In this document: positions 1 to 10,011 of the stretch, in pieces | Layout of the letters: the number at the start of each line of letters is the position of its first letter | How positions within the stretch are numbered: the first letter of the stretch is position 1 | DNA from: a virus | Lineage: Duplodnaviria; Heunggongvirae; Uroviricota; Caudoviricetes | Virus record (IMG/VR): IMGVR_UViG_2802429253_000016 | Span: 1-10,011 of that record | Strand: one strand, 5' to 3' | Length of the DNA: 10,011 bases | The notes under the pieces: generated by a model | The model's input: only the letters and a program-made list of their open reading frames with translations | Databases searched by the model: none | Told to the model about the DNA's origin: nothing | Program-made: the position numbers and the translations under genes

Positions 1-582
1 TTAAACTCTGCGCTGAAATTTCTTTTTTTCATTGGAGCACCTGTGTTGTTCTGAGGTGAGCATATCACCTCTGTTCAGGTGGCCAAATTCAGTGTGCCAC
101 TTCAGATTGAACGCAGCAGCAAGACGGCTGGCGGTATAGTTAATCCCCTCGTTGCGTGCTTCCGCACGTACTTCAGCCAGGAAAGCATCGGTGGCTGGGG
201 TTTGCGGCATCCTTCCGTCTATTGCGCAGATATACGCATCAGATAGTTCATCCTGCTCGCCATCAAACACGTAGCAACTCTGTACGATAAATTTATTCAG
301 CCCCGCATTCTCCGCCGCAAGCGCAGCAAGATTAGTCTCCAGCTCTGCAATGCGTTTGCTTTGGGCTTCCCGTTCATCCAGCAGTGCCAGCACGGTAGCC
401 GGATTGGCTGCTGCTATGAATCGCTTATTGGCGCGATTATCTGGTCCTGAGCATGATGCTATGTAGTAATTTGCGTTCAGTCCGGCATCAGCAATTACCC
501 CATAGTAATCATCAGAACACCATTCGCCAGGGGTTGCATTTTCTGCCGCCATTCGCAGTGCCTGGTAATTAATGTTGCTCAC
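1..582 (-). CDS. Phage accessory protein, tentatively ead/Ea22-like (coiled-coil middle, conserved NATPGEW and NPATVLALLD segments)
   Basis: Six-frame ORF 1..609. The preferred start is GTG at 580-582, preceded by AGGAGG (589-594) with a 6-nt spacer; the ATG at 609 has no SD. Stop TAA at 1-3. Family assignment is from memory and unverified. Confidence 0.55.
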   Translation of the reverse strand: MSNINYQALRMAAENATPGEWCSDDYYGVIADAGLNANYYIASCSGPDNRANKRFIAAANPATVLALLDEREAQSKRIAELETNLAALAAENAGLNKFIVQSCYVFDGEQDELSDAYICAIDGRMPQTPATDAFLAEVRAEARNEGINYTASRLAAAFNLKWHTEFGHLNRGDMLTSEQHRCSNEKKKFQRRV

Positions 583-874
583 TGGTTGCCTCCTGAAAAA
601 TAACTGCATGCCCCAGCTTCTCCGCCAGTGCCAGTTCTGCCTTAGCGCCTGCTGACCGCTGCCAGCCTTTCAGCATGTAAATCGCATCCACACAACGAAT
701 CATTGCCATGCAAATATCCATGTAGTGTGGCTGTGTCAGTCCGTCCGGAAGTACTGCCGGACTTAAGACGGTATGCCCTTCCCGTTTCAGTTCCTCTTCC
801 GCCTTGTGGAACGCCTCACGGTTGAAATTTTTATACCCGGTCATCGGACCAGCGATATAAACCCTCACCCTCAC
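569..874 (-). CDS. DUF4406-like / nucleoside 2-deoxyribosyltransferase-like small protein (101 aa)
   Basis: ORF with GTG start at 872-874 overlapping the upstream stop (GTGA), AGGAGG at 883-888. N-terminal YIAGPMTG motif and a GW-x-S-x-GA segment are typical of the DUF4406/deoxyribosyltransferase-like fold. Assignment from memory. Confidence 0.6.
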   Translation of the reverse strand: MRVRVYIAGPMTGYKNFNREAFHKAEEELKREGHTVLSPAVLPDGLTQPHYMDICMAMIRCVDAIYMLKGWQRSAGAKAELALAEKLGHAVIFQEATSEQH

Positions 875-1287
875 GCCATCACCTCCTGAAAATTACCCTG
901 ATAAAACGCCAGCACACGCTGCATAACCTTGCTTTTCCGGCACTCGCGACAGATTATGTTCTGACGTCTGTCGTAGCGGCGTATCTCTCCATCTGGTAAT
1001 GAATAAATCAGGTCAGGATCGCTCTTTTTCTTCACCGCCGCTTTCGACATCTTTTCGATGGCTTTTATCCAGTCCTTACGCGCCTGCGCTGAAGGGAATA
1101 TTCCATACCCTGAACCATATACAACACCACTGGCTACCAGCTCTTTCGTCAGAACTTCTATCAGATGTCTCGTCGCCCCAATTTCATTTTCCAGTTGTTT
1201 ACGCGTTTTCCGACCATCTCTGCGTACCAGTTCCACAATGCGCGCCTTCACTTCTTCCCGCTGTTCGGAAGTAAAAACTTTTGCCAC
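871..1287 (-). CDS. Hypothetical phage protein (138 aa), basic, possible N-terminal winged-helix and a C-terminal CxxC
   Basis: ORF starting with GTG (1285-1287) 4 nt after AGGAGG (1292-1297). It is co-oriented and tightly packed with the replication gene; no family recognised. Confidence 0.55.
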   Translation of the reverse strand: MAKVFTSEQREEVKARIVELVRRDGRKTRKQLENEIGATRHLIEVLTKELVASGVVYGSGYGIFPSAQARKDWIKAIEKMSKAAVKKKSDPDLIYSLPDGEIRRYDRRQNIICRECRKSKVMQRVLAFYQGNFQEVMA

Positions 1288-1327
1288 AAGTCCTCCTGAA
1301 AATTACCTCATGATCTGAAATAAACAC

Positions 1328-2275
1328 TTACCCCCTGAAGCCCGGCGGAATTTCGGTATCCGGTTCAGAAATGTGATTCACGCAACGCTGTACAGGCGAA
1401 CGCCCCAGACGAATAACCAGCTCATCCCATTTTTCGCGAAGCTTTGACGGGCTCATGACGTTTTTTACCCAGAATGGATCCCGCTGTACCCGACCAAACA
1501 TTTCGCAAATTTGTCTGTGAGTTCTGCCATCCAGCATCCGCATTGTGCGCACATCATTGGCCCATGCAGTCCAGTTGGGTTCTTTCGGTCGCATGATTTC
1601 GCCATCATCGCTGGCAGCCTGCTCGTAAAGACTCACGATTCGTCCCCAGATCCACTGCGCACACGCTAAATCTTCCTGGCTACCCCACTGGCGTTTTTTC
1701 GCACTGAACACAACCGCGTCAGGGTGTCGGGTTAAAAAATCCTGTTCAGCCGTCTGCGAGTCCGGTTGCGAAGCTTCCGGACGAAAAGATCTTTTATCTG
1801 ACGGATCAGGTTTTAATACTGACGGATCGGGGCCAACCATCGCCCCCCTATCCGGCTGTTTTTTATCAATGGTTGATCCATCAAAATTTGAGGGGTCAAC
1901 CGTTGAGGGGGCAATATTTGACGGGTCATTTTTTGCCTGGCTAATTTTTCTTTTCGGTTTATATGCCTCACGCGCCGCCGCTGCTGCTGCTTCTAGTTTT
2001 TCCACATTAAGACGGTAGATATTGCTTACATTACGCCCACCGACCTTACGTTCCTCCTTCGTCAGCCAGCCGTTCTTTTCCAGTTCCGCTATCGCAGCTT
2101 TAACCGTTGATTCACTCTTTGCCCCAATCTGACGACGAATGGTCTCCACTGCAGGCCATGACACACCTTCGTCATTGCTGTAATCTGCAAGGCGAGCCAT
2201 TACTGCCACCCTGGATAAGATCATGCCGGTGAAGGCGCACCCTTCCCAGACAAGACCATGAAGCTTGCTGCTCAT
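1328..2275 (-). CDS. Replication initiation protein: N-terminal winged-helix domain, iteron-encoded linker, C-terminal DnaT-like (primosomal protein I-like) domain
   Basis: 315-aa ORF with ATG at 2275 and GGAG SD. The C-terminus ...VNHISEPDTEIPPGFRG matches the DnaT C-terminal signature as recalled. The internal iteron cluster plus AT-rich tract is the same arrangement as ori inside lambda O. The N-terminal wHTH resembles phage replication proteins. Confidence 0.85.
   Translation of the reverse strand: MSSKLHGLVWEGCAFTGMILSRVAVMARLADYSNDEGVSWPAVETIRRQIGAKSESTVKAAIAELEKNGWLTKEERKVGGRNVSNIYRLNVEKLEAAAAAAREAYKPKRKISQAKNDPSNIAPSTVDPSNFDGSTIDKKQPDRGAMVGPDPSVLKPDPSDKRSFRPEASQPDSQTAEQDFLTRHPDAVVFSAKKRQWGSQEDLACAQWIWGRIVSLYEQAASDDGEIMRPKEPNWTAWANDVRTMRMLDGRTHRQICEMFGRVQRDPFWVKNVMSPSKLREKWDELVIRLGRSPVQRCVNHISEPDTEIPPGFRG
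1796..1966. repeat. Origin-like iteron cluster (TGACGGATC-type 9-mers) followed by an AT-rich tract, embedded in the initiator gene
   Basis: Direct copies TGACGGATC (1799-1807, 1820-1828), TGAGGGGTC (1889-1897), TGAGGGGGC (1904-1912), TGACGGGTC (1919-1927), with 15-bp phasing for the last three, plus an inverted copy (1875-1883, gatccatca). Followed by ttttttgcctggctaatttttcttttcggtttatat (1928-1964). They encode the repeated DPS motifs in the protein linker. Confidence 0.7.
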
Positions 2276-2298
2276 AAAAAACTCCGAACACCGTGCTT

Positions 2299-2724
2299 TT
2301 AGTGCATCACCAGGGCATTTCCCGCCGGACCACCACGATTCATCTGATTGAAACCAGCGATCGCCACTGCGACAAAATCATCAGCGTCTCTCACCAGTCG
2401 TTCCCGCGTCTCCACCAGCTCCCGAAAATAGGCTGAACTGTGGCTGCGCATTCGGGCCACCAGCAGAGGTGGCATTGCTTTTTCGATCGCTGGTAACAAC
2501 GCCTGAATTTTTTTAACCGCATCAGGGGTGTCTTTCTCCACCCAGCGGAAAATCTTCTGAGTATTGCGAGCCAGGGCTTCTGGGTGTGAATCGTCGTACA
2601 GTTCCGGAAACGTCATACCCAGTTCAAAATAAGCCCGGGTTATTTCAGCTGCCGGAACTTTTTCTCCGTCCGGATGCGCCCAGGCATTCATCGCCATGCG
2701 GATGTGCTCATGCTTGATTTTCAT
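2299..2724 (-). CDS. YdaT-like protein (CII-type regulator analogue), 141 aa
   Basis: ORF immediately downstream of the cro-like gene with a 4-nt ATGA start/stop overlap at 2721-2724, the position occupied by cII in lambda and by ydaT in Rac-type prophages. Family call from memory. Confidence 0.65.
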   Translation of the reverse strand: MKIKHEHIRMAMNAWAHPDGEKVPAAEITRAYFELGMTFPELYDDSHPEALARNTQKIFRWVEKDTPDAVKKIQALLPAIEKAMPPLLVARMRSHSSAYFRELVETRERLVRDADDFVAVAIAGFNQMNRGGPAGNALVMH

Positions 2725-2948
2725 GAATCACTCTTCCTTTCGCTCTGAGTGGTATCCTTCTTTTTGTAAAGCTCTGGGTTCAAAGATAATTTTCCCTTGG
2801 AGTATGCAGCAGCTTCCGCAGCTCTCCCTTTCGGAACTATTTCACCGGGGCGCTTACGCCACATGTAAATAGCTTCGCGGGTTATCCCATAAAAATCAGC
2901 GACCCTCTGAACAGAGCCAAAAAACTGAACAAGTTCATCAACTCGCAT
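2721..2948 (-). CDS. Cro/DicC/YdaS-like small HTH regulator (75 aa)
   Basis: First gene of the leftward operon, divergent from the repressor. SD AGGAGG (2954-2959) 5 nt before ATG at 2948. Small, basic, HTH-like N-terminus. Confidence 0.75.
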   Translation of the reverse strand: MRVDELVQFFGSVQRVADFYGITREAIYMWRKRPGEIVPKGRAAEAAAYSKGKLSLNPELYKKKDTTQSERKSDS

Positions 2949-3044
2949 TTCACCCTCCTAAAATCTAAGTATTTTTAGATTACAGGATAATTTTTTTTAG
3001 GTCAATGCGATCTAAAATAATTTATATTCAACTCGCGGGAGAAA
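2949..3044. promoter_or_regulatory. Divergent immunity control region (oR-like) with 18-bp palindromic operators and pR/pRM-type promoters
   Basis: Operator ATCTAAGTATTTTTAGAT (2963-2980, perfect 6-6-6 palindrome) and ATCTAAAATAATTTATAT (3010-3027). On the minus strand TTGACC (3005-3000), a 17-nt spacer and TAATCT (2982-2977) form a candidate pR overlapping the first operator. TATATT at 3023-3028 is a candidate pRM -10. Confidence 0.6.
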
Positions 3045-3692
3045 ATGATGGAAAGCCTTGGCATCAGGCTTAAGAAACTCAGAAAAGATAAGGGACTCAC
3101 CCAAGTAGAACTGGGTAAGCTTTCAGGCGTGACTGGGGTTACTATAGGGTACTGGGAGAAAGATCTAAACGAACCCGGCAGCAAAGCTCTAAGTAAGTTA
3201 GCCCAAGCATTAGGAACTACTGAGTCCTATCTCCTGTATGGAGTATCGTCTCCTGAACTATCTTTTGTGCAGAGCAATCCAGGCACCAAGATCCCCTACT
3301 TTTCGTGGGGTGACGCGATTTCTTTCCTAATCTTAGAAGGAGAGAAAACAATGGGAAATGTCGATAGGATCACCACATTCTTTGATGTAGTGGAAGGTGA
3401 TTTTGCCGTTTCAATGCCTGATGACACTATGCATAACCCCTCAGGGTCGCCAAGTATCCCAGTTGGTGCCACTGTGATCCTAAGACCAGGAGAAAGTTAT
3501 AAAAATGGCAGTATCGTCGCTGTAATAGTTCCAGATCCTCTTACAAATGAACCGTCTATGACTATAAAAAAATTAGTTATTGATGGAAAACTTGTGTATT
3601 TAAGCCCTCTCAATCCGCGCTATCAATCATCCTTGCTTACGCCAGAGTGTAAAATTGTTGCCGTAGCAAAAGGTGTACAGTTCAACCTATAA
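3045..3692 (+). CDS. CI-type phage repressor: N-terminal XRE-family HTH plus C-terminal S24 (LexA-like) autopeptidase domain
   Basis: 215-aa ORF. N-terminus has an HTH (LTQVELGKLSGVTGVTIGYWE). C-terminus has VSM (Ser nucleophile context) and TIKKLVIDGKLVYLSPLNP, aligning with lambda CI GNSM and FKKLIRDSGQVFLQPLNP (Ser/Lys dyad). The second ATG at 3048 has better SD spacing (GGGAG 3037-3041). Confidence 0.9.
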   Translation: MMESLGIRLKKLRKDKGLTQVELGKLSGVTGVTIGYWEKDLNEPGSKALSKLAQALGTTESYLLYGVSSPELSFVQSNPGTKIPYFSWGDAISFLILEGEKTMGNVDRITTFFDVVEGDFAVSMPDDTMHNPSGSPSIPVGATVILRPGESYKNGSIVAVIVPDPLTNEPSMTIKKLVIDGKLVYLSPLNPRYQSSLLTPECKIVAVAKGVQFNL

Positions 3693-3713
3693 CCCTGCCA
3701 TGTTCTTGAACTT

Positions 3714-3740
3714 AAGGTCGGTTATGCCGACCTTTTTTTT
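3714..3740 (+). terminator. Rho-independent terminator downstream of the repressor gene
   Basis: Stem AAGGTCGG (3714-3721), loop TTATG, CCGACCTT (3727-3734), followed by TTTTTT (3735-3740). Confidence 0.75.
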
Positions 3741-3759
3741 AAATTAATTTAGATTCCTC

Positions 3760-3788
3760 TTGACTATAAAACTAAATACTTTTAGATT
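3760..3788 (+). promoter_or_regulatory. pL-like promoter with overlapping operator (oL-like)
   Basis: TTGACT (3760-3765), 17-nt spacer, TAGATT (3783-3788). Operator AACTAAATACTTTTAGAT (3770-3787) has the same 6-6-6 architecture as the oR sites. Confidence 0.5.
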
Positions 3789-3970
3789 TATTGCATGCCA
3801 ACCCATCCCGTCCCCACAGAATGCAGGGCAATACTTCGAGTTACCAGGCAGTGGTCAGGGGTTAAGTAGCCAGCCCGAGGCGTAAGAACATGACGGCAGG
3901 GTTCAACTTTAATAACTATGCAGCAGGTTTTTGTTCCGCTACCCCGGCGTTAAGGGGAAATGAGGTCAAC

Positions 3971-4126
3971 ATGGATACTATCGATCTTGGCAACAACGAA
4001 TCTCTGGTGTACGGCGTGTTTCCCAACCAGGACGGCACATTCACCGCGATGACGTATACCAAAAGCAAAACGTTTAAAACCGAAAATGGTGCCCGTCGCT
4101 GGCTGGAAAGAAACTCAGGTGAGTGA
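3971..4126 (+). CDS. ydfA: YdfA-like small protein (DUF1391), 51 aa
   Basis: Internal ATG at 3971 with GAGG (3962-3965) 5 nt upstream. The product MDTIDLGNNESLVYGVFPNQDGTFTAMTYTKSKTFKTENGARRWLERNSGE matches the Qin prophage YdfA as recalled. The longer ORF from 3890 lacks an SD. Confidence 0.75.
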   Translation: MDTIDLGNNESLVYGVFPNQDGTFTAMTYTKSKTFKTENGARRWLERNSGE

Positions 4127-4127
4127 T

Positions 4128-4256
4128 ATGGATTTCGACACAATCATGGAAAAGGCTTACGAAGAATACTTCGAAGGCCTTGCCGAAGGCGAAGAAGCTC
4201 TCAGCTTCAGTGAGTTTAAACAGGCGCTTTCCAGTTCGGCAAAATCTAACGGCTGA
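4128..4256 (+). CDS. ydfB: YdfB-like small protein, 42 aa (not in the supplied ORF track)
   Basis: ATG at 4128 two nt after the ydfA stop. It encodes MDFDTIMEKAYEEYFEGLAEGEEALSFSEFKQALSSSAKSNG, with stop TGA at 4254-4256. Length and position match Qin ydfB as recalled. Confidence 0.65.
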   Translation: MDFDTIMEKAYEEYFEGLAEGEEALSFSEFKQALSSSAKSNG

Positions 4257-4285
4257 TAAGCGAAACAGCACCGCGAGGAATCAGT

Positions 4286-4501
4286 ATGCAGAAACCAGAA
4301 CCCATCATCATCGCACCAGGCTATACCGATGATGAAATTTACGAATGGATGTGCGGGAAGATACGCGCCATTAATGACCTGAAGCAGGCTGCTGACTATA
4401 AAGAGCGCCTCTCTAAAGAACTGGCGTCAGCGGAGCAGGATATTACCACTCTGGCAAAAAGCGCGGCATTAAACGTTTCACGAGTGAATGAAAACTACTG
4501 A
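4286..4501 (+). CDS. ydfC: YdfC-like small protein, 71 aa
   Basis: ATG at 4286 with GAGGAA (4275-4280) 5 nt upstream; third gene of the dicB-type operon. Confidence 0.8.
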   Translation: MQKPEPIIIAPGYTDDEIYEWMCGKIRAINDLKQAADYKERLSKELASAEQDITTLAKSAALNVSRVNENY

Positions 4502-4516
4502 CTGATGAGGTTGACG

Positions 4517-4846
4517 ATGGAATTTAAAGATTTACCAATACCATTCCAGGAAATGGCAGCGAATATAGTTCGTTCCCAACTGGCGACTCTTGACCTGAGT
4601 ACCGTAGAAAAAGAAACCATCGATAATATATCCGGTAACGTGCGTCGCGCCTTTATCGGGTTGTACGAAGAGAAGCAACTCTCTGATAACCAGGATTTGC
4701 ATGAAAAATACTTCCTGGAATTAATGAACATCATTGATAAGGGGTTTGGCTTGTTAATGAAAAAGAAAGGGATTCGAATAGAACCCCTTGAAAATTACTT
4801 TGCAACAAAAAGCATTAATTCTTTTGATTCAAAACAAGAGAATTAA
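4517..4846 (+). CDS. Hypothetical protein (109 aa) in an AT-rich insertion; function unknown
   Basis: ATG at 4517 with GAGG (4507-4510) and a 6-nt spacer (the ORF track starts at 4505). Markedly AT-rich relative to flanking DNA. Its 3' end overlaps the convergent ORF by 32 nt. Confidence 0.5.
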   Translation: MEFKDLPIPFQEMAANIVRSQLATLDLSTVEKETIDNISGNVRRAFIGLYEEKQLSDNQDLHEKYFLELMNIIDKGFGLLMKKKGIRIEPLENYFATKSINSFDSKQEN

Positions 4847-5090
4847 TAACAGATTTAACATGCTCTTTCTCATGATTGAAGCTCTCATGATTGAAAGCGC
4901 CGGGTTGAAGCGAGTCGATATAATCAACAAGACTCTGTCGTACGACTTCATTTTTATCCATAACAGATGCAAGAAATGAAATTGCTAAAAGAGTTATATC
5001 ACTACGCGCCGCAGCATGCTGCAATGCTTTATCAAAATTATTAATCTGGCGTATCAGGGAGTTAATGATTTCATTATTTTCAGTCGACAT
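4815..5090 (-). CDS. Hypothetical protein (91 aa), antisense-oriented within the pL operon; function unknown
   Basis: ATG at 5088-5090 preceded by AGGAGGG (5096-5102) with a 5-nt spacer; this RBS context (AGGAGGGTGAAATG) is identical to that of the cro-like gene. The longer ORF to 5168 has no SD. AT-rich. Confidence 0.5.
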   Translation of the reverse strand: MSTENNEIINSLIRQINNFDKALQHAAARSDITLLAISFLASVMDKNEVVRQSLVDYIDSLQPGAFNHESFNHEKEHVKSVINSLVLNQKN

Positions 5091-5421
5091 TTCACCCTCC
5101 TGAGGGTTGGTGATTAAGGAGTTCTCCACGGGTGAGGTGGAGTGCGTGCGCCGGACACGGGTGAGCATCCGGCACTGACAGTTTACTGAAAGGATATATC
5201 CCTGAAAAGTCAGGGCATAACGCGAAAGCGCACGGCGAAGTTCTTCTGTCTATACGGTGTCGTTAAATTTAATTCGACCGTGCGCTTCCGGTTGTGGCAC
5301 TCCGCGAAATGGCGCGGCGGTAAGTATGGCGGGGTTATTCCTTCCCCGTTGAGGACACCGGGTTGTCAGGTTGACCATACGCTTAAGTGACACCCCCGCT
5401 GCAACGCCCTCTGTTATCAAT

Positions 5422-5477
5422 TTTCTGGTGACGTTTGGCGGCATCTGTTTGCCCATGAACTGATGCCCGCCCTTTTT
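5422..5477 (+). ncRNA. dicF: DicF-like small regulatory RNA with intrinsic terminator
   Basis: The 5' segment TTTCTGGTGACGTTTGGCGG matches the DicF 5' end as recalled. Hairpin GGCGGCATC (5437-5445) / GATGCCCGCC (5462-5471), then CTTTTT. It sits between ydfC and dicB, as in the Qin dicB operon. Confidence 0.7.
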
Positions 5478-5479
5478 AA

Positions 5480-5631
5480 AGTGAATTTTGTGATGCGGTG
5501 AATGCGGCTCAGCGCACGCGGAACAGTTAAAACCAAAAACAGTGTTATGGGTGGATTCTCTGTATCCGGCGTTAATTGTTAACTGGTTAACGTCACCTGG
5601 AGGCACCAGGCACCGCATCACAAAATTCATT
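5480..5631 (+). promoter_or_regulatory. Long-range RNA stem (about 20 bp) enclosing about 110 nt between DicF and the dicB RBS; candidate RNase III processing or translational control structure
   Basis: 5482-5500 tgaattttgtgatgcggtg is the exact reverse complement of 5611-5629 caccgcatcacaaaattca, extendable by a G-U and an A-U pair. The 3' arm ends 5 nt before the dicB SD (GAGGA, 5635-5639). Confidence 0.5.
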
Positions 5632-5646
5632 GTTGAGGACGCGATA

Positions 5647-5835
5647 ATGGAAACGTTATTACCAAACGTTAATACGTCTGAAGGTTGTTTTGAAATTGGT
5701 GTCAGAATCAGTAACTCTGCATTTACTGAAGATGCCATTAACAAGAGAAAACACGAACGGGAGTTATTAAATAAAATATGCATTCTTTCAATGCTGGCAC
5801 GTTTACGCCCGATGCAAAAAGGATGCTGGCAATGA
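5647..5835 (+). CDS. dicB: DicB cell-division inhibitor (62 aa)
   Basis: ATG at 5647 with GAGGA 7 nt upstream. The product METLLPNVNTSEGCFEIGV...NKICILSMLARLRPMQKGCWQ matches DicB as recalled. The ORF-track N-terminal extension from 5542 is non-coding leader. Confidence 0.85.
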   Translation: METLLPNVNTSEGCFEIGVRISNSAFTEDAINKRKHERELLNKICILSMLARLRPMQKGCWQ

Positions 5836-6035
5836 ATACAGCAATTGCTCTCACTCTGACAGTTTTTCTTAATACGGGCGAGCCTGTTGACCTGGTTATT
5901 GACATTTACGGTTCAATGAAAGAATGCACGGCTGCCGCAGCGGAACAGAAAATTCCCGGTAACTGTTATCCGGTTGATAAAGTTATTCATATGGACAATA
6001 ACGAAATCCCGGCAGGACTTAAAACAGCACCGTAA
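5832..6035 (+). CDS. ydfD: YdfD-like small protein (67 aa; prophage lysis-associated protein in K-12)
   Basis: ATG at 5832 overlaps the dicB stop (ATGA). The product MNTAIALTLTVFLNTGEPVDLVIDIYGSMKEC... matches YdfD as recalled. Confidence 0.7.
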   Translation: MNTAIALTLTVFLNTGEPVDLVIDIYGSMKECTAAAAEQKIPGNCYPVDKVIHMDNNEIPAGLKTAP

Positions 6036-6115
6036 TTAATATCCGGTTTCATTTTTATATGCCAGCAATGGCAGGGATTTGTTCACCCTTAAATCTGTAA
6101 TGAGGTTAAAACAAA

Positions 6116-8590
6116 ATGAGTAAAGTCTTTATTTGCGCCGCCATTCCGGACGAACAGGCAACAGCAGAAGGCGCTAAACCTGTGGCCACTGCCATTGAAG
6201 CAGGCGACGAACGCCGGGCAAGAGCCAAATTTAGCTGGTTATTTCTGGAACAATACCCGGAAACTCAGGACTGTGCTTATAAATTTCTTGTCTGCGAGGA
6301 TAAACCCGGCATGGCCCGCCCTGCTCTCGATTCCTGGGATTCCGAATATATGCAGGAAAACCGCTGGAATGAGGAGTCGGCTTCCTTTGTTCCGGTCGAC
6401 CCTGAACCGGATACAGAAACTGTTAACTTTAATCAGTTATCTGACGACAAGCGGGCTGCTGTCCTTGTCAGGTTCGGTACACATGAAAACATCACCGTGG
6501 ATATGGTCATCAATGCAAGCGGGCTTCTCGGCGATGACGAGATGACGACTTTTGATGGACACCTCACTGAAGCAGTTATCCGGACCAGAGAAATTAACGC
6601 CATGTATCCTGAGCGTCAGACTGAGTACATCAACGATGCCAGACGTGATTTAAAACCAACAGCCAAATGGCCCGATGTTCAGGCGTATTTTCTCGAACGT
6701 AAAAAACGCATGGAAAAGGAGCGCAAAGAAGGTGGAGCATATAATTCCGTCGTCGATCTTGCCCGCGCCAGAGTCAACCGGCAAGGCACTGAAAACTCTG
6801 CAGGAAAAACTGACTCCGTAACTGCTGTCATTCGTCGCGAATACAAGCAGACATGGAAAACACTGGATGGCGAACTGGCCTACGCTCTCTGGCCTGGTGA
6901 TGTGGATGCCGGAAACGTTAACGGCAGCATCCATCGCTGGGCAAAAAATGAAGTTATCGACAACGACCGCGAAGACTGGAAGCGTATCTCGGCATCAATG
7001 CGCAAACAGCCTGATGCCCTTCGCTACGACCGCCAGACTATTTTTGGCCTTGTCCGTGAACGTCCGATCGACATTCACAAAGACCCTGTGGCACTGAACA
7101 AATACATTACTGAATACCTGACTACAAAGGGCGTGTTTGAAGATGAAGGAAGAAATCAGAGCGCAACTGATACTCTCTCGTCGCCAGTACCAGAAACTGA
7201 TGCAGTGGAAACGGCAATTCCGGACAACGAAAAAACCGAATGCAAAGTGGAAGTCGAACCATCTGTAGAGCGTGAGGGGCCATTCTACTTCCTCTTCACC
7301 GACAAGGATGGCGAAAAATACGGTCGCGCAAACAAACTTTCTGGTCTGAATAAGGCGCTGGCTGCCGGGGCTACTGAAATCACGAAAGAAGAATATTTTG
7401 CCCGCAAAAACGGCACATACTCAGGTTCACAACAAAATACTGGTGCATCTGACACGACCGCACAACCAGAGCCGGTAAAAGTTACCGCTGACGAAGTAAA
7501 CAAAATTATGCAGGCAGTCAGCCAGCCTGACGCCAATCAGTTGCTTGCTGCCTCTCGCGGAGAATTTGTTGCAGGGATTAGCGACCCGAATGATCCGAAA
7601 TGGGTGAAGGGGATTGAAACCCGCGATTCTGTGTACCAGAACCAGCAAGAAACGGAACAGAACGACCAGAAAGCGGAACAAAACAGCCAAAATGCGTTAC
7701 AAAACGAGCCAGAAACGAAACAATCCGAACCAGTAGCGCAACAAGAACCAGAAAAAACCTGCACCGCCTGCGGTCAGAGCGGTGGCGGCAACTGCCCTGA
7801 TTGTGGCGCGGTGATGGGCAACGCAACATATCAGGAAACATTCGATGAAGAGAATCAGGTTGAAGTTCAGGAAAATGATCCGGAGGAAATGGAAGGCGCT
7901 GAACATCCACACAAGGGGGACACTAGCGGCGCTCAGGACCACGCCAGCGATAGTGAAACTGGTGAGGCGGCAGATCCCTTAATTAATGTGAATGGTCATC
8001 ATAAAAGCACATCCACCAGTAGAGTGTGGTACCACCTGATGATCGACCTTGAAACGATGGGTAAAAAAAGTAATGCCCCCATCGTGGTTATTGGTGCTGT
8101 GTTCTTCGATCCGCAGACCGGGGAAATCGGGCCAACATTTTATATCGTTATCAGCCTGGTTGACGCTATGGACACGGGTGCTGTACCTGATGGTTCCACC
8201 ATCGAATGGTGGCTTGCTCAGTCCAGCGAAGCCAGATCTGCAATTTTAGTTGATCAGGTAAAACTGGTTGACGCTCTTATTCAATTTCGGGAATTCATCA
8301 ATGAGTACTCGAATGAAAAATTCGTTCAGGTATGGGGCAATGGTGCAACTTTCGACAACACTATTTTACGAACCTCGTACGAACGCCTGAACATCCCCTG
8401 CCCGTGGCGTTACTACAACGATCGCGATGTACGTACAATCGTTGAACTGGGAAAAACTATCGACTTCGATGCCAGAACAGTTATTCCATTTGAAGGCGTG
8501 CGCCACCATGCGCTGGATGATGCCCGTCACCAGGCGAAATACGTTTCAGCAATCTGGCAAAAACTGATCCCGAATCAGGCTGATTTTTAA
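6116..8590 (+). CDS. Large RecE/YdfE-like protein (824 aa) with a Q/E-rich low-complexity linker, a CxxC-x10-CxxC knuckle and a C-terminal DEDDh (DnaQ-like) 3'-5' exonuclease domain
   Basis: Single uninterrupted ORF. C-terminal motifs: Exo I MIDLETMG, Exo II WGNGATFDNTIL, Exo III RHHALDDARHQAKY. The N-terminus MSKVFICAAIPDE... resembles Qin YdfE, and the middle LLAASRGEF...CTACGQSGGGNCPDCGAVMG segment resembles RecE, both as recalled. It sits where exo/recE sits in lambdoid phages. Confidence 0.85.
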   Translation: MSKVFICAAIPDEQATAEGAKPVATAIEAGDERRARAKFSWLFLEQYPETQDCAYKFLVCEDKPGMARPALDSWDSEYMQENRWNEESASFVPVDPEPDTETVNFNQLSDDKRAAVLVRFGTHENITVDMVINASGLLGDDEMTTFDGHLTEAVIRTREINAMYPERQTEYINDARRDLKPTAKWPDVQAYFLERKKRMEKERKEGGAYNSVVDLARARVNRQGTENSAGKTDSVTAVIRREYKQTWKTLDGELAYALWPGDVDAGNVNGSIHRWAKNEVIDNDREDWKRISASMRKQPDALRYDRQTIFGLVRERPIDIHKDPVALNKYITEYLTTKGVFEDEGRNQSATDTLSSPVPETDAVETAIPDNEKTECKVEVEPSVEREGPFYFLFTDKDGEKYGRANKLSGLNKALAAGATEITKEEYFARKNGTYSGSQQNTGASDTTAQPEPVKVTADEVNKIMQAVSQPDANQLLAASRGEFVAGISDPNDPKWVKGIETRDSVYQNQQETEQNDQKAEQNSQNALQNEPETKQSEPVAQQEPEKTCTACGQSGGGNCPDCGAVMGNATYQETFDEENQVEVQENDPEEMEGAEHPHKGDTSGAQDHASDSETGEAADPLINVNGHHKSTSTSRVWYHLMIDLETMGKKSNAPIVVIGAVFFDPQTGEIGPTFYIVISLVDAMDTGAVPDGSTIEWWLAQSSEARSAILVDQVKLVDALIQFREFINEYSNEKFVQVWGNGATFDNTILRTSYERLNIPCPWRYYNDRDVRTIVELGKTIDFDARTVIPFEGVRHHALDDARHQAKYVSAIWQKLIPNQADF

Positions 8591-8654
8591 TGTTCAACCC
8601 CGGTCGTCGCCCACCAGCTATAGTGGCGGCGACCATGATTAGCGAACGACGCTC

Positions 8655-8903
8655 ATGGCAAGACTTATTCTGCTCACTGAGTGGGCAAAAGAGGAATTCA
8701 GTGAACCGGTCCCTACTCCGGGTACGTTAAGTAAATACGCTAAAGCCGGAATGATATTTCCTCTCCCCAAAAAAGTAGGAAGGCACTGGCGAGTGGATCC
8801 ACGCGCTCGCTTTGTCGGAATGGTAAACAAGCCTGAGGTGATCGCCACAGATCACCCTGCTTTGAAGAGGATACTGGAAGATGGCGCGCCCGCGAAAATA
8901 TAA
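8655..8903 (+). CDS. xis: Excisionase (Xis-like, 82 aa)
   Basis: Small basic protein immediately upstream of, and overlapping, int by 23 nt. LILLTEWAKEE...IFPLPKKVGRHWRV parallels lambda Xis LTLQEWNARQ...IFPPPVKDGREY. Confidence 0.8.
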   Translation: MARLILLTEWAKEEFSEPVPTPGTLSKYAKAGMIFPLPKKVGRHWRVDPRARFVGMVNKPEVIATDHPALKRILEDGAPAKI

Positions 8904-10011
8904 AACCGATGTTCCGGGTTTATCTCCGTATTTTGACAAAAGAAATAACAAAGTTTACTGGCGTTACAGGCATCCCATCACAGGTAAAAATCATGGACTC
9001 GGCAGTATTGACCAGAAACTGGCGGAAACCATTGCAGCAGAAGCGAACAGCCGTCTTGCCAGACAAAAAATGGAGCAAATGCTCAGTCTGCAGGAGAAAA
9101 TTATTAGTGATACCGGCGGCGCATCAACCGTTTCCATTTTTCTGAATAATTACAGAAAAATTCAACAGGAAAGATATGAGAACGGAGAAATCAAGCTCAG
9201 CACGCTGAAACAAAAAGCGGCTCCTCTCAGGGTGTTTGATGAACGTTTTGGAGCCAGGCCGCTAGATGCCATAACCGTAAAAGATGTGGTATCGGTGCTG
9301 GAAGAATACAAGGCAAAGGGACATAACAGAATGGGACAAATTTTCAGGAAGGTATTGATCGATGTTTTCCGGGAGGCTCAACAAACGGGTGATGTCCCGC
9401 CAGGCTTTAACCCGGCTGAATCGGCAAAAAAACCGCAAGTGCGGATATCAAGACAGCGACTGACTTTTGATGAGTGGATGATGATTTATAACGCAGCGGA
9501 AAAGGATGGTTACTTTTTACAGCGCGGCATGCTGCTGGCACTGATGACGGGCCAGCGTCTTTCGGATATTTGCAAAATGCAGTTTTCGGATATCCGGGAT
9601 GGTTACCTTCATGTCGAACAGCAAAAAACAGGAGCCCGGATAGCCATTCCTCTGGCTCTGCGTTGCGACAAATTAAATCTTACCCTGGGTGACGTGGTGT
9701 CATCCTGTCGTGATTACATCCTTAGTCCGTGGTTATTGCACCATCATCACGCTAAGGGGATGGGTAAGCGCGGCGGGATGGTTAAACCAGCAACGTTAAC
9801 AGTCGCATTTAAAAAAGCCCGGGATTCTGTGGATTACAACTGGCGTGCTAATGGCACGCCACCCTCTTTCCATGAGCAAAGATCTTTATCAGAACGATTG
9901 TTCAGAGAACAGGGAATTGATACCAAAATTTTGCTGGGCCATTCGAATCAAAAAATGACCGATATTTACAACGACGCACGCGGTAAAGAGTGGAAAAAAC
10001 TGGTTGTTTGA
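8881..10011 (+). CDS. int: Lambda-family tyrosine integrase (376 aa), apparently intact
   Basis: Collinear with lambda Int. N-terminal arm-binding region (YFDKRNNKVYWRYRHPITGK), TGQRLSDI (Arg), HEQRSLSERLF (His, Arg), LLGHSNQKMTDIY (His, Tyr nucleophile), and a C-terminal GKEWKK tail. Stop TGA at 10009-10011. Confidence 0.95.
   Translation: MARPRKYKTDVPGLSPYFDKRNNKVYWRYRHPITGKNHGLGSIDQKLAETIAAEANSRLARQKMEQMLSLQEKIISDTGGASTVSIFLNNYRKIQQERYENGEIKLSTLKQKAAPLRVFDERFGARPLDAITVKDVVSVLEEYKAKGHNRMGQIFRKVLIDVFREAQQTGDVPPGFNPAESAKKPQVRISRQRLTFDEWMMIYNAAEKDGYFLQRGMLLALMTGQRLSDICKMQFSDIRDGYLHVEQQKTGARIAIPLALRCDKLNLTLGDVVSSCRDYILSPWLLHHHHAKGMGKRGGMVKPATLTVAFKKARDSVDYNWRANGTPPSFHEQRSLSERLFREQGIDTKILLGHSNQKMTDIYNDARGKEWKKLVV

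Follow-up and report, generated by a model that had tools for sequence, protein, structure and literature searches.

What does a RecE-type protein do when it ends in a nuclease of the opposite predicted polarity and has no annealing protein encoded beside it? This question is raised by a gene at 6116-8590 (+ strand) in a 10,011-nt stretch of Caudoviricetes DNA (IMG/VR record IMGVR_UViG_2802429253_000016, positions 1 to 10,011), the whole of which is referred to here as the window. Ever since RecET was taken up for recombineering, the N-terminal 560 to 600 residues of RecE have been without an assigned function (PMC11611040), and the window gene provides a case of one scaffold naturally joined to two unrelated nucleases of opposite predicted polarity. 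The evidence supports replacement of the RecE PD-(D/E)xK nuclease by a DEDDh exonuclease domain, with recT also missing. We consider it likely that this mosaic of RecE scaffold and DexA-like nuclease, encoded in an early-left operon, would act as a stand-alone 3'-end-trimming or DNA-degrading enzyme and not as an annealing recombinase.

The DEDDh exonuclease domain and the RecE-type scaffold

The open reading frame (ORF) at 6116-8590 proposed in a preliminary description of this DNA is real. It is a complete coding sequence of 824 aa plus a stop codon, a length for which the earlier label "giant" was abandoned, and is preceded by a GAGG ribosome-binding site 9 nt upstream of the ATG at 6116. 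The PHROG 2082 profile, named "exonuclease", spans the whole 824-aa protein with an E value of 0. From the N terminus the protein consists of a RecE-type scaffold, a predicted disordered linker, and a domain of the DEDDh 3'-5' exonuclease type.

The C-terminal domain (aa 640-814, 8033-8557) is matched by Pfam PF16473 (Rv2179c-like) with an E value of 1.2e-68 and 230.7 bits against a cut-off of 27, and the alignment takes in profile positions 2-177 of 177. All three DnaQ-type motifs previously noted in the C terminus were located: the Exo I motif DLET at aa 644-647 (8045-8056), containing D644 and E646; the Exo II motif GNGATFDNT at aa 741-749 (8336-8362), containing D747; and the Exo III motif HHALDDA at aa 797-803 (8504-8524), containing H797 and D802. 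This catalytic pentad is retained in 98-100% of 321 relatives that possess a complete domain. Counted residue by residue over 322 aligned sequences, D644 is present in 319, E646 in 317 and D747 in 318, and both H797 and D802 are invariant. The AlphaFold2 (AF2) model has a predicted local distance difference test (pLDDT) score of about 90 across the domain. When all Protein Data Bank (PDB) sequences were searched, the sole relative at E≤0.01 was DexA of bacteriophage T4 (8KEL/8KEN), with about 30% identity and, for 8KEL, E values of 1.4e-9 (single sequence) and 3.5e-13 (family profile); weak matches of the domain to RNase_T and oligoribonuclease were also found. DexA is a 3'-5' DNA exonuclease (PMC12153337), and because it is the nearest characterized relative, 3'-5' polarity is expected for the window domain. 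The identification as a DEDDh exonuclease, made before any profile search, is therefore supported; exonuclease activity, the previously predicted 3'-to-5' polarity and a DNA substrate are what homology to DexA would lead us to expect.

The N-terminal part of the protein is related to RecE. In the AF2 model it forms four confident domains connected by disordered segments: a small α/β fold (aa 1-96, 6116-6403), a helical domain with pLDDT of about 90 (aa 100-206, 6413-6733), a second helical domain with pLDDT above 90 (aa 245-344, 6848-7147), and a β-hairpin plus helix module with pLDDT of about 90 (aa 388-435, 7277-7420), the motif of which, GPFYF...GRANK...EIT.EEY, is conserved in the scaffold alignment. 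An N-terminal profile compared by hhalign aligned aa 102-338, a stretch that includes the second domain, with residues 130-372 of Rac RecE at 98.8% probability. The third domain, detected by both hhalign and BLASTP, is 27% identical to RecE 288-368 by BLASTP, and is the best-matched stretch in many distant relatives; no other part of the RecE-family scaffold is so widely conserved. The strongest similarity to RecE lies further downstream: by BLASTP against Rac-SA53 RecE, aa 472-622 are 74% identical to RecE 471-614, and the similarity ends at the start of the RecE nuclease domain. The profile and sequence comparisons thus bear out the RecE-like scaffold proposed in the preliminary description.

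The RecE nuclease itself is absent. Neither Pfam PF06630 nor PF12684 matched a PD-(D/E)xK nuclease in the protein, and tblastn with the Rac RecE nuclease domain was negative. The NCBIfam RecE equivalog model NF007259 scores 271.3 bits, below its cut-off of 1269, and aligns solely to aa 237-623 (model positions 260-602 of 877), with its nuclease part unmatched. A structure search of the N-terminal domains against the PDB and viral models found no informative relatives, and a profile search meant to deepen the N-terminal alignment gave close E. coli relatives alone. The missing structural relatives fit the reported state of the RecE N-terminal domain, which is of unknown function and dispensable for RecET recombination (PMC11611040).

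The linker module common to the window protein and Rac RecE (aa 472-622, 7529-7981) contains the peptide RGEFVAGISDPNDPKW (motif RGEFVxGISDPNDPKW), acidic Q/E/N-rich tracts and a zinc knuckle. The tracts, said earlier to flank the knuckle, were found at approximately aa 507-547 (60% Q/E/N/D) and aa 571-600 (53%). The knuckle, CTACGQSGGGNCPDCG at aa 549-564 (7760-7807), does contain the two CxxC pairs described (C549, C552, C560 and C563), but they are separated by seven residues (CxxC-x7-CxxC) and not by ten. With pLDDT below 50, aa 497-546 and 564-634 are predicted to be disordered. Of 216 close long relatives, 186 keep the knuckle, as does Rac RecE, against only 1 of 70 diverse scaffold relatives. 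The peptide RGEFVAGISDPNDPKW (aa 481-496, 7556-7603; pLDDT 58-69) is likewise kept in Rac RecE, in 182 of the 216 long close relatives and in 6 of the 70 diverse ones. It is set in an otherwise disordered linker and may be a short docking motif for a partner. Several distant scaffold relatives without the zinc knuckle retain the peptide.

Annealase survey and operon position

The gap between the exonuclease gene and xis is 64 bp, and nothing is encoded in it; the earlier statement that no bet- or recT-like gene lies there was correct. None of the window ORFs has an annealase domain in Pfam, and the Sak, Sak4 and Gp2.5 families were likewise excluded for the window ORFs. All + strand ORFs between the repressor gene (3045-3692) and the exonuclease gene encode 113 aa or fewer. 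A hidden annealase among the small early-left ORFs was considered and rejected: these are DUF1391, DicB, DUF1482 or unassigned.

The survey of homologous prophages for an annealing partner that the preliminary description had suggested was carried out with tblastn probes for Rac RecT, lambda Bet, Exo and Gam, P22 Erf and Abc2, and the RecE nuclease domain, for which positive controls worked. The probes were negative in the window, in two related loci (L001 and L002), in 80 IMG/VR loci (up to 10 kb upstream) and in the complete phage Tritos. They were also negative in five of six genome loci; the exception, L095, carries a RecE-type tail. Overall, the search turned up no homolog of RecT, Bet or Erf in the window, 88 related loci with the DEDDh form, or the whole of Tritos.

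The gene order in the window is that of a Qin/Rac-like lambdoid prophage: a LexA-type repressor gene (3045-3692), a hairpin and promoter-like site (3714-3788), DUF1391/ydfA, ydfB-like and ydfC-like genes, a DicF-like RNA, DicB, DUF1482/ydfD, the exonuclease gene, xis and int. The excisionase gene xis (8655-8903, + strand) is identified by Pfam Exc PF07825, and the integrase gene (8881-10011, + strand) marks the prophage end, an integrase also being found in relatives integrated next to ompW. The order ydfA-ydfB-ydfC-dicF-dicB-ydfD-exo-xis-int agrees with that in Qin, Tritos and EC931, and the same arrangement is present in ompW-integrated E. coli prophages and in phages Evi and Tritos. A terminator-like hairpin (3714-3734) precedes the candidate early-left (dicB-operon) promoter (3760-3788, + strand), which is the sole promoter-like + strand site upstream of the gene. 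The promoter scan found no such site directly before the exonuclease gene, and the simplest reading is therefore that this gene comes last among the cargo genes of the repressor-controlled early-left (dicB-type) operon.

Several other features of this region were recorded. The DicF-like small RNA (5423-5472, + strand) scores 35.9 bits, below the Rfam gathering threshold of 48; its flanks share about 95% identity with the DicF region annotated in phage Tritos, but its 3' hairpin differs. An STnc100-like match over the dicB leader (5470-5679) scores 37.7 bits (threshold 47), and at gathering thresholds Rfam gave no match in the window. The Pfam match puts the true DicB start near 5647, not at the GTG at 5542. 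A 177-aa ORF at 5250-5783 (- strand) is unlikely to be a gene, since Pfam gives no match for it and it runs across the dicF/dicB-leader region, which is non-coding and conserved. On the rightward side, 3' of the replication genes, the window encodes a DUF4406 protein (101 aa; 569-874, - strand) and an Ead/Ea22-like protein (202 aa; 1-609, - strand).

Tail exchange, distribution and position 767

An exhaustive HMMER search with aa 1-470 recovered 184 cluster representatives, 70 of them long. Among the 70 long scaffold relatives, 20 have an Exonuc_VIII tail, 12 a DUF3799 (PDDEXK) tail and 9 a DEDDh/Rv2179c-like tail. In a ranking of the relatives by similarity of the scaffold, proteins with the two kinds of tail are intermixed, and therefore the tails have been repeatedly swapped on the RecE scaffold. 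The clearest example is the metagenomic locus L095 (10001-14013), whose 987-aa product shares 74% identity with the window protein over aa 1-499. Its C terminus is a RecE PD-(D/E)xK nuclease, 87% identical to that of Rac, and recT follows directly; the L095 protein can be taken as a naturally occurring matched control for the exchange of tails. In Rac-SA53 the equivalent slot contains recE-recT, and recT thus follows in both PD-(D/E)xK cases whose flanks were seen. The nuclease-domain swap on a RecE-like scaffold proposed in the preliminary description is supported by the alternative tails and by the L095 pair. The presence of one scaffold on two nuclease types, with recT beside the PD-(D/E)xK type in the two cases seen, speaks for a scaffold whose function does not depend on single-strand annealing. 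Together, the window and L095 proteins form a matched natural pair for probing what the scaffold binds.

The gene is common in E. coli prophages and already annotated there. Full-length relatives are present on at least 599 IMG/VR contigs, and 2,200 of 5,426 complete E. coli genomes contain a copy covering at least 80% of the gene, in up to nine places per genome; the multiple places within E. coli are 80-92% identical. The gene is among the commonest uncharacterized early genes of E. coli prophages, those of Shiga-toxin-producing strains included. Relatives of the full protein in Escherichia albertii and E. coli are 80-93% identical, the nearest to the 824-aa product being from E. albertii (93% over aa 1-470), and the best match of the window DNA among the 5,426 E. 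coli genomes is only 87-92% identical; the window may accordingly derive from E. albertii or from a related lineage of Escherichia. The precomputed Pfam architecture PF27430 + PF27432 + PF16473 is already attached to relatives. The window protein is a well-populated, annotated variant of the RecE family with an ordinary distribution. Our literature search found no paper on the fused RecE-scaffold/DEDDh form, and the literature on ydfE gave no functional data.

Naming of these proteins is inconsistent: "exodeoxyribonuclease VIII", "3'-5' exoribonuclease", "3'-5' exonuclease" and "exonuclease" are all used across records. The first of these is probably wrong as a description of the nuclease domain, and "3'-5' exoribonuclease" is unsupported and probably wrong too. 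Many E. coli entries of 180-183 aa take the internal Met of MIDLETMG as their start and fall into clusters with the long forms; these entries are probably fragments. The K-12 gene ydfE, a pseudogene of the Qin prophage, is an IS2-truncated remnant of the window-type gene. As the preliminary description had sensed, there is a clear likeness: ydfE is 66% identical over aa 1-255 and shares the neighbors ydfA, ydfB, ydfC, dicF, dicB and ydfD, but it is cut by IS2E and lacks everything past approximately aa 255 to 300, the nuclease included.

The C-terminal domain also occurs by itself, in 1,408 phage records. Stand-alone DEDDh proteins, about 190 aa long and with 60-65% identity to aa 640-824, are found in Salmonella, Citrobacter, Klebsiella and E. 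coli prophages, and their genes too are located just 5' of xis/int in lambdoid phages, among accessory "ea"-type genes. Unlike the window protein, these "Rv2179c-like" exonucleases, among which the E. coli DexA homolog EcD discussed below may belong, have no RecE scaffold, and most have a Trp at the hypervariable position also discussed below. In Yersinia phage YeP2 (L088, 900-5567) and Providencia phage PSTCR8lys (L089, 1858-5498), the stand-alone DEDDh gene is int-proximal in the early-left operon, with an RdgC-family gene farther upstream. No match to the RecT, Bet or Erf probes was found in these two regions, and the few neighboring ORFs that were scanned with Pfam showed no annealase domain. 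In Salmonella phage S.Typ Adana (L097, 5231-9564), the stand-alone DEDDh gene comes after DUF2303 (YfdQ-like), YfbR-like, GmrSD_N/ParB-like, Ead/Ea22 and EaA-like genes, and an SseK/NleB effector gene lies past the integrase.

In DexA, W152 is reported to stack on 5-hydroxymethylcytosine (5hmC), and W152 and D169 have been proposed for 5hmC recognition (PMC12153337). The equivalent residues of the window protein are Y767 (codon 8414-8416) and T781, so that neither of the two proposed 5hmC-recognition residues is retained. Position 767 lies inside the conserved motif CPW-x-x-[YCWHT]-ND[RH]DVRT, and is itself the most variable column of the domain, with 2.64 bits over 229 distinct sequences (Y 62, C 50, W 40, H 39, T 19). 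Fused forms have mostly His, Cys or Tyr at this position, and stand-alone forms mostly Trp. This is the pattern that would be expected of a substrate-recognition residue under diversifying selection, which we regard as a lead and not as proof, and it offers a concrete link to the claim that DexA-like enzymes discriminate modified DNA. Loss of the DexA tetramer residue D90, which would give a dimer-like state, is not seen in the window protein: the equivalent D719 is present and is kept in 275 of the 322 aligned sequences. DexA S87 corresponds to K716.

Biological role and comparison with known systems

In the mechanism that we favor, a two-metal DEDDh domain would trim DNA nucleotide by nucleotide at free 3' ends, and the scaffold would provide the same targeting or partner contacts that it provides to RecE. 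The protein would probably be made mainly after induction or infection, because its gene is the last cargo gene of a repressor-controlled operon. With the wrong predicted polarity and no annealase, it could not act as a single-strand-annealing recombinase of the Red/RecET type. Several points weigh against this interpretation. PF16473 is named after an exoribonuclease, NCBI names relatives "3'-5' exoribonuclease", and the activity attributed to the fused protein derives from homology. For related loci, the survey for annealases was seeded with RecT, Bet and Erf, with Sak, Sak4 and Gp2.5 covered for the window ORFs only, and the annealase search of the source prophage spans the 10-kb window, although the complete Tritos has none. 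Finally, the promoter scan is a weak consensus search, and the gene may have an internal or weak promoter from which it is expressed in the lysogen.

What such an enzyme would be used for is a matter on which we divide our belief. It might process ends for the phage's own replication or recombination, replacing the recombination module and using host RecA or other host factors. According to PMC12153337, DexA acts in intron homing, and the proposed function would resemble what DexA does in double-strand-break repair during T4 intron homing. The early-left operon position suits it also, as do the slot and scaffold shared with Rac-type recE, positional analogy being the rule in lambdoid phages, and the viable phages Evi, Tritos and PPompW carry the gene without Red/RecET. 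However, 3'-5' exonucleases strip the 3' tails required by RecA and annealases in E. coli recombination, so that normally the recombinogenic tails would be destroyed, and the stand-alone versions lie among accessory "ea"-type genes and not beside recombinases. The title of PMC13048471 reports enhancement of RecET-mediated assembly by a xonA mutation, which also tells against recombination-module replacement; we retain end processing as a tentative possibility, with slightly more weight than any other role. Similarly doubtful, in our estimate, is a role as an HREX-type nuclease of inter-phage conflict, which would degrade the modified DNA of superinfecting or competing phages, with residue 767 setting the modification recognized. 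The proposal draws on the report that the E. coli DexA homolog EcD degrades 5hmC DNA and not unmodified DNA, and that its expression from a plasmid protects against T4 (PMC12153337). Hypervariability of the DexA W152 position within a conserved motif would be in keeping with it, as would the high prevalence, multiple copies and diversity of the gene in E. coli and the accessory location of stand-alone versions by xis/int. Yet the HREX evidence is a single overexpression-based study, EcD is no more than a possible member of the window subfamily, its accession (HAK9828821.1) being absent from the clusters of ten stand-alone or short forms, and the DexA residues proposed for 5hmC recognition are Tyr and Thr here. 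PADLOC gives a marginal, generic DEDDh match (E 8e-4) that is not evidence for a known defense system. The gene also lies in a repressed early-left operon and has no promoter-like site of its own, unlike typical exclusion genes expressed in lysogens, and its predicted silence in lysogens counts against a classical exclusion role. Rather improbable, in the form in which we can state it, is a broader idea that the RecE scaffold is an autonomous targeting module with interchangeable nucleases and that residue 767 tunes the DexA-like exonuclease to differently modified foreign DNA; if true, it would place a widespread modification-sensing nuclease of anti-phage defense or phage competition in approximately 40% of E. 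coli genomes.

Two further roles seem unlikely. The exonuclease could serve counter-defense by removing 3'-ended DNA, for example single-stranded intermediates, that is used or sensed by host immunity. Early expression and the lack of an annealase partner are compatible with this, and in two phages a stand-alone relative is accompanied by an RdgC-family protein. RdgC binds DNA and inhibits RecA; Pfam describes it as a putative exonuclease only. No anti-defense family is matched, however, and the argument is one of gene neighborhood in those two phages, so that we give counter-defense a low probability. Lower still is the chance that the enzyme is an exoribonuclease acting on 3' ends of phage or host RNA, with the dicBF polycistronic transcript as a possible target. 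PF16473 is described as a 3'-5' exoribonuclease domain, the weak RNase_T and oligoribonuclease matches point the same way, and a DicF-like small RNA is encoded in the same operon, but DexA, the one solved relative that sequence searches detect, is a DNA exonuclease, and RecE, which has the same scaffold, is a DNA nuclease. Both DNA and RNA are often attacked by DEDDh enzymes, and for this reason the exoribonuclease name in databases carries little weight; it comes from the Pfam family name and probably misleads. The small share of probability that is left after these four roles falls to others.

Lambda Red (Exo, Bet and Gam) occupies the same early-left operon region of a lambdoid genome as the window gene, but the window protein has no similarity to Exo, Bet or Gam, and its locus, with an exonuclease of opposite predicted polarity and no annealase, does not have the 5'-3' exonuclease plus annealing-protein gene that make up a Red/RecET-type system. 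T4 DexA shares the DEDDh catalytic residues of the window domain, but is a free-standing protein of 227 aa with extra loops, from a lytic phage with modified DNA. Relative to Rac RecE, the window protein has a DEDDh domain in place of PD-(D/E)xK, the opposite predicted polarity, and no recT after it; what the two have in common is the scaffold, the linker with its zinc knuckle, and the slot of their genes, which come last in the early-left operon and 5' of xis and int.

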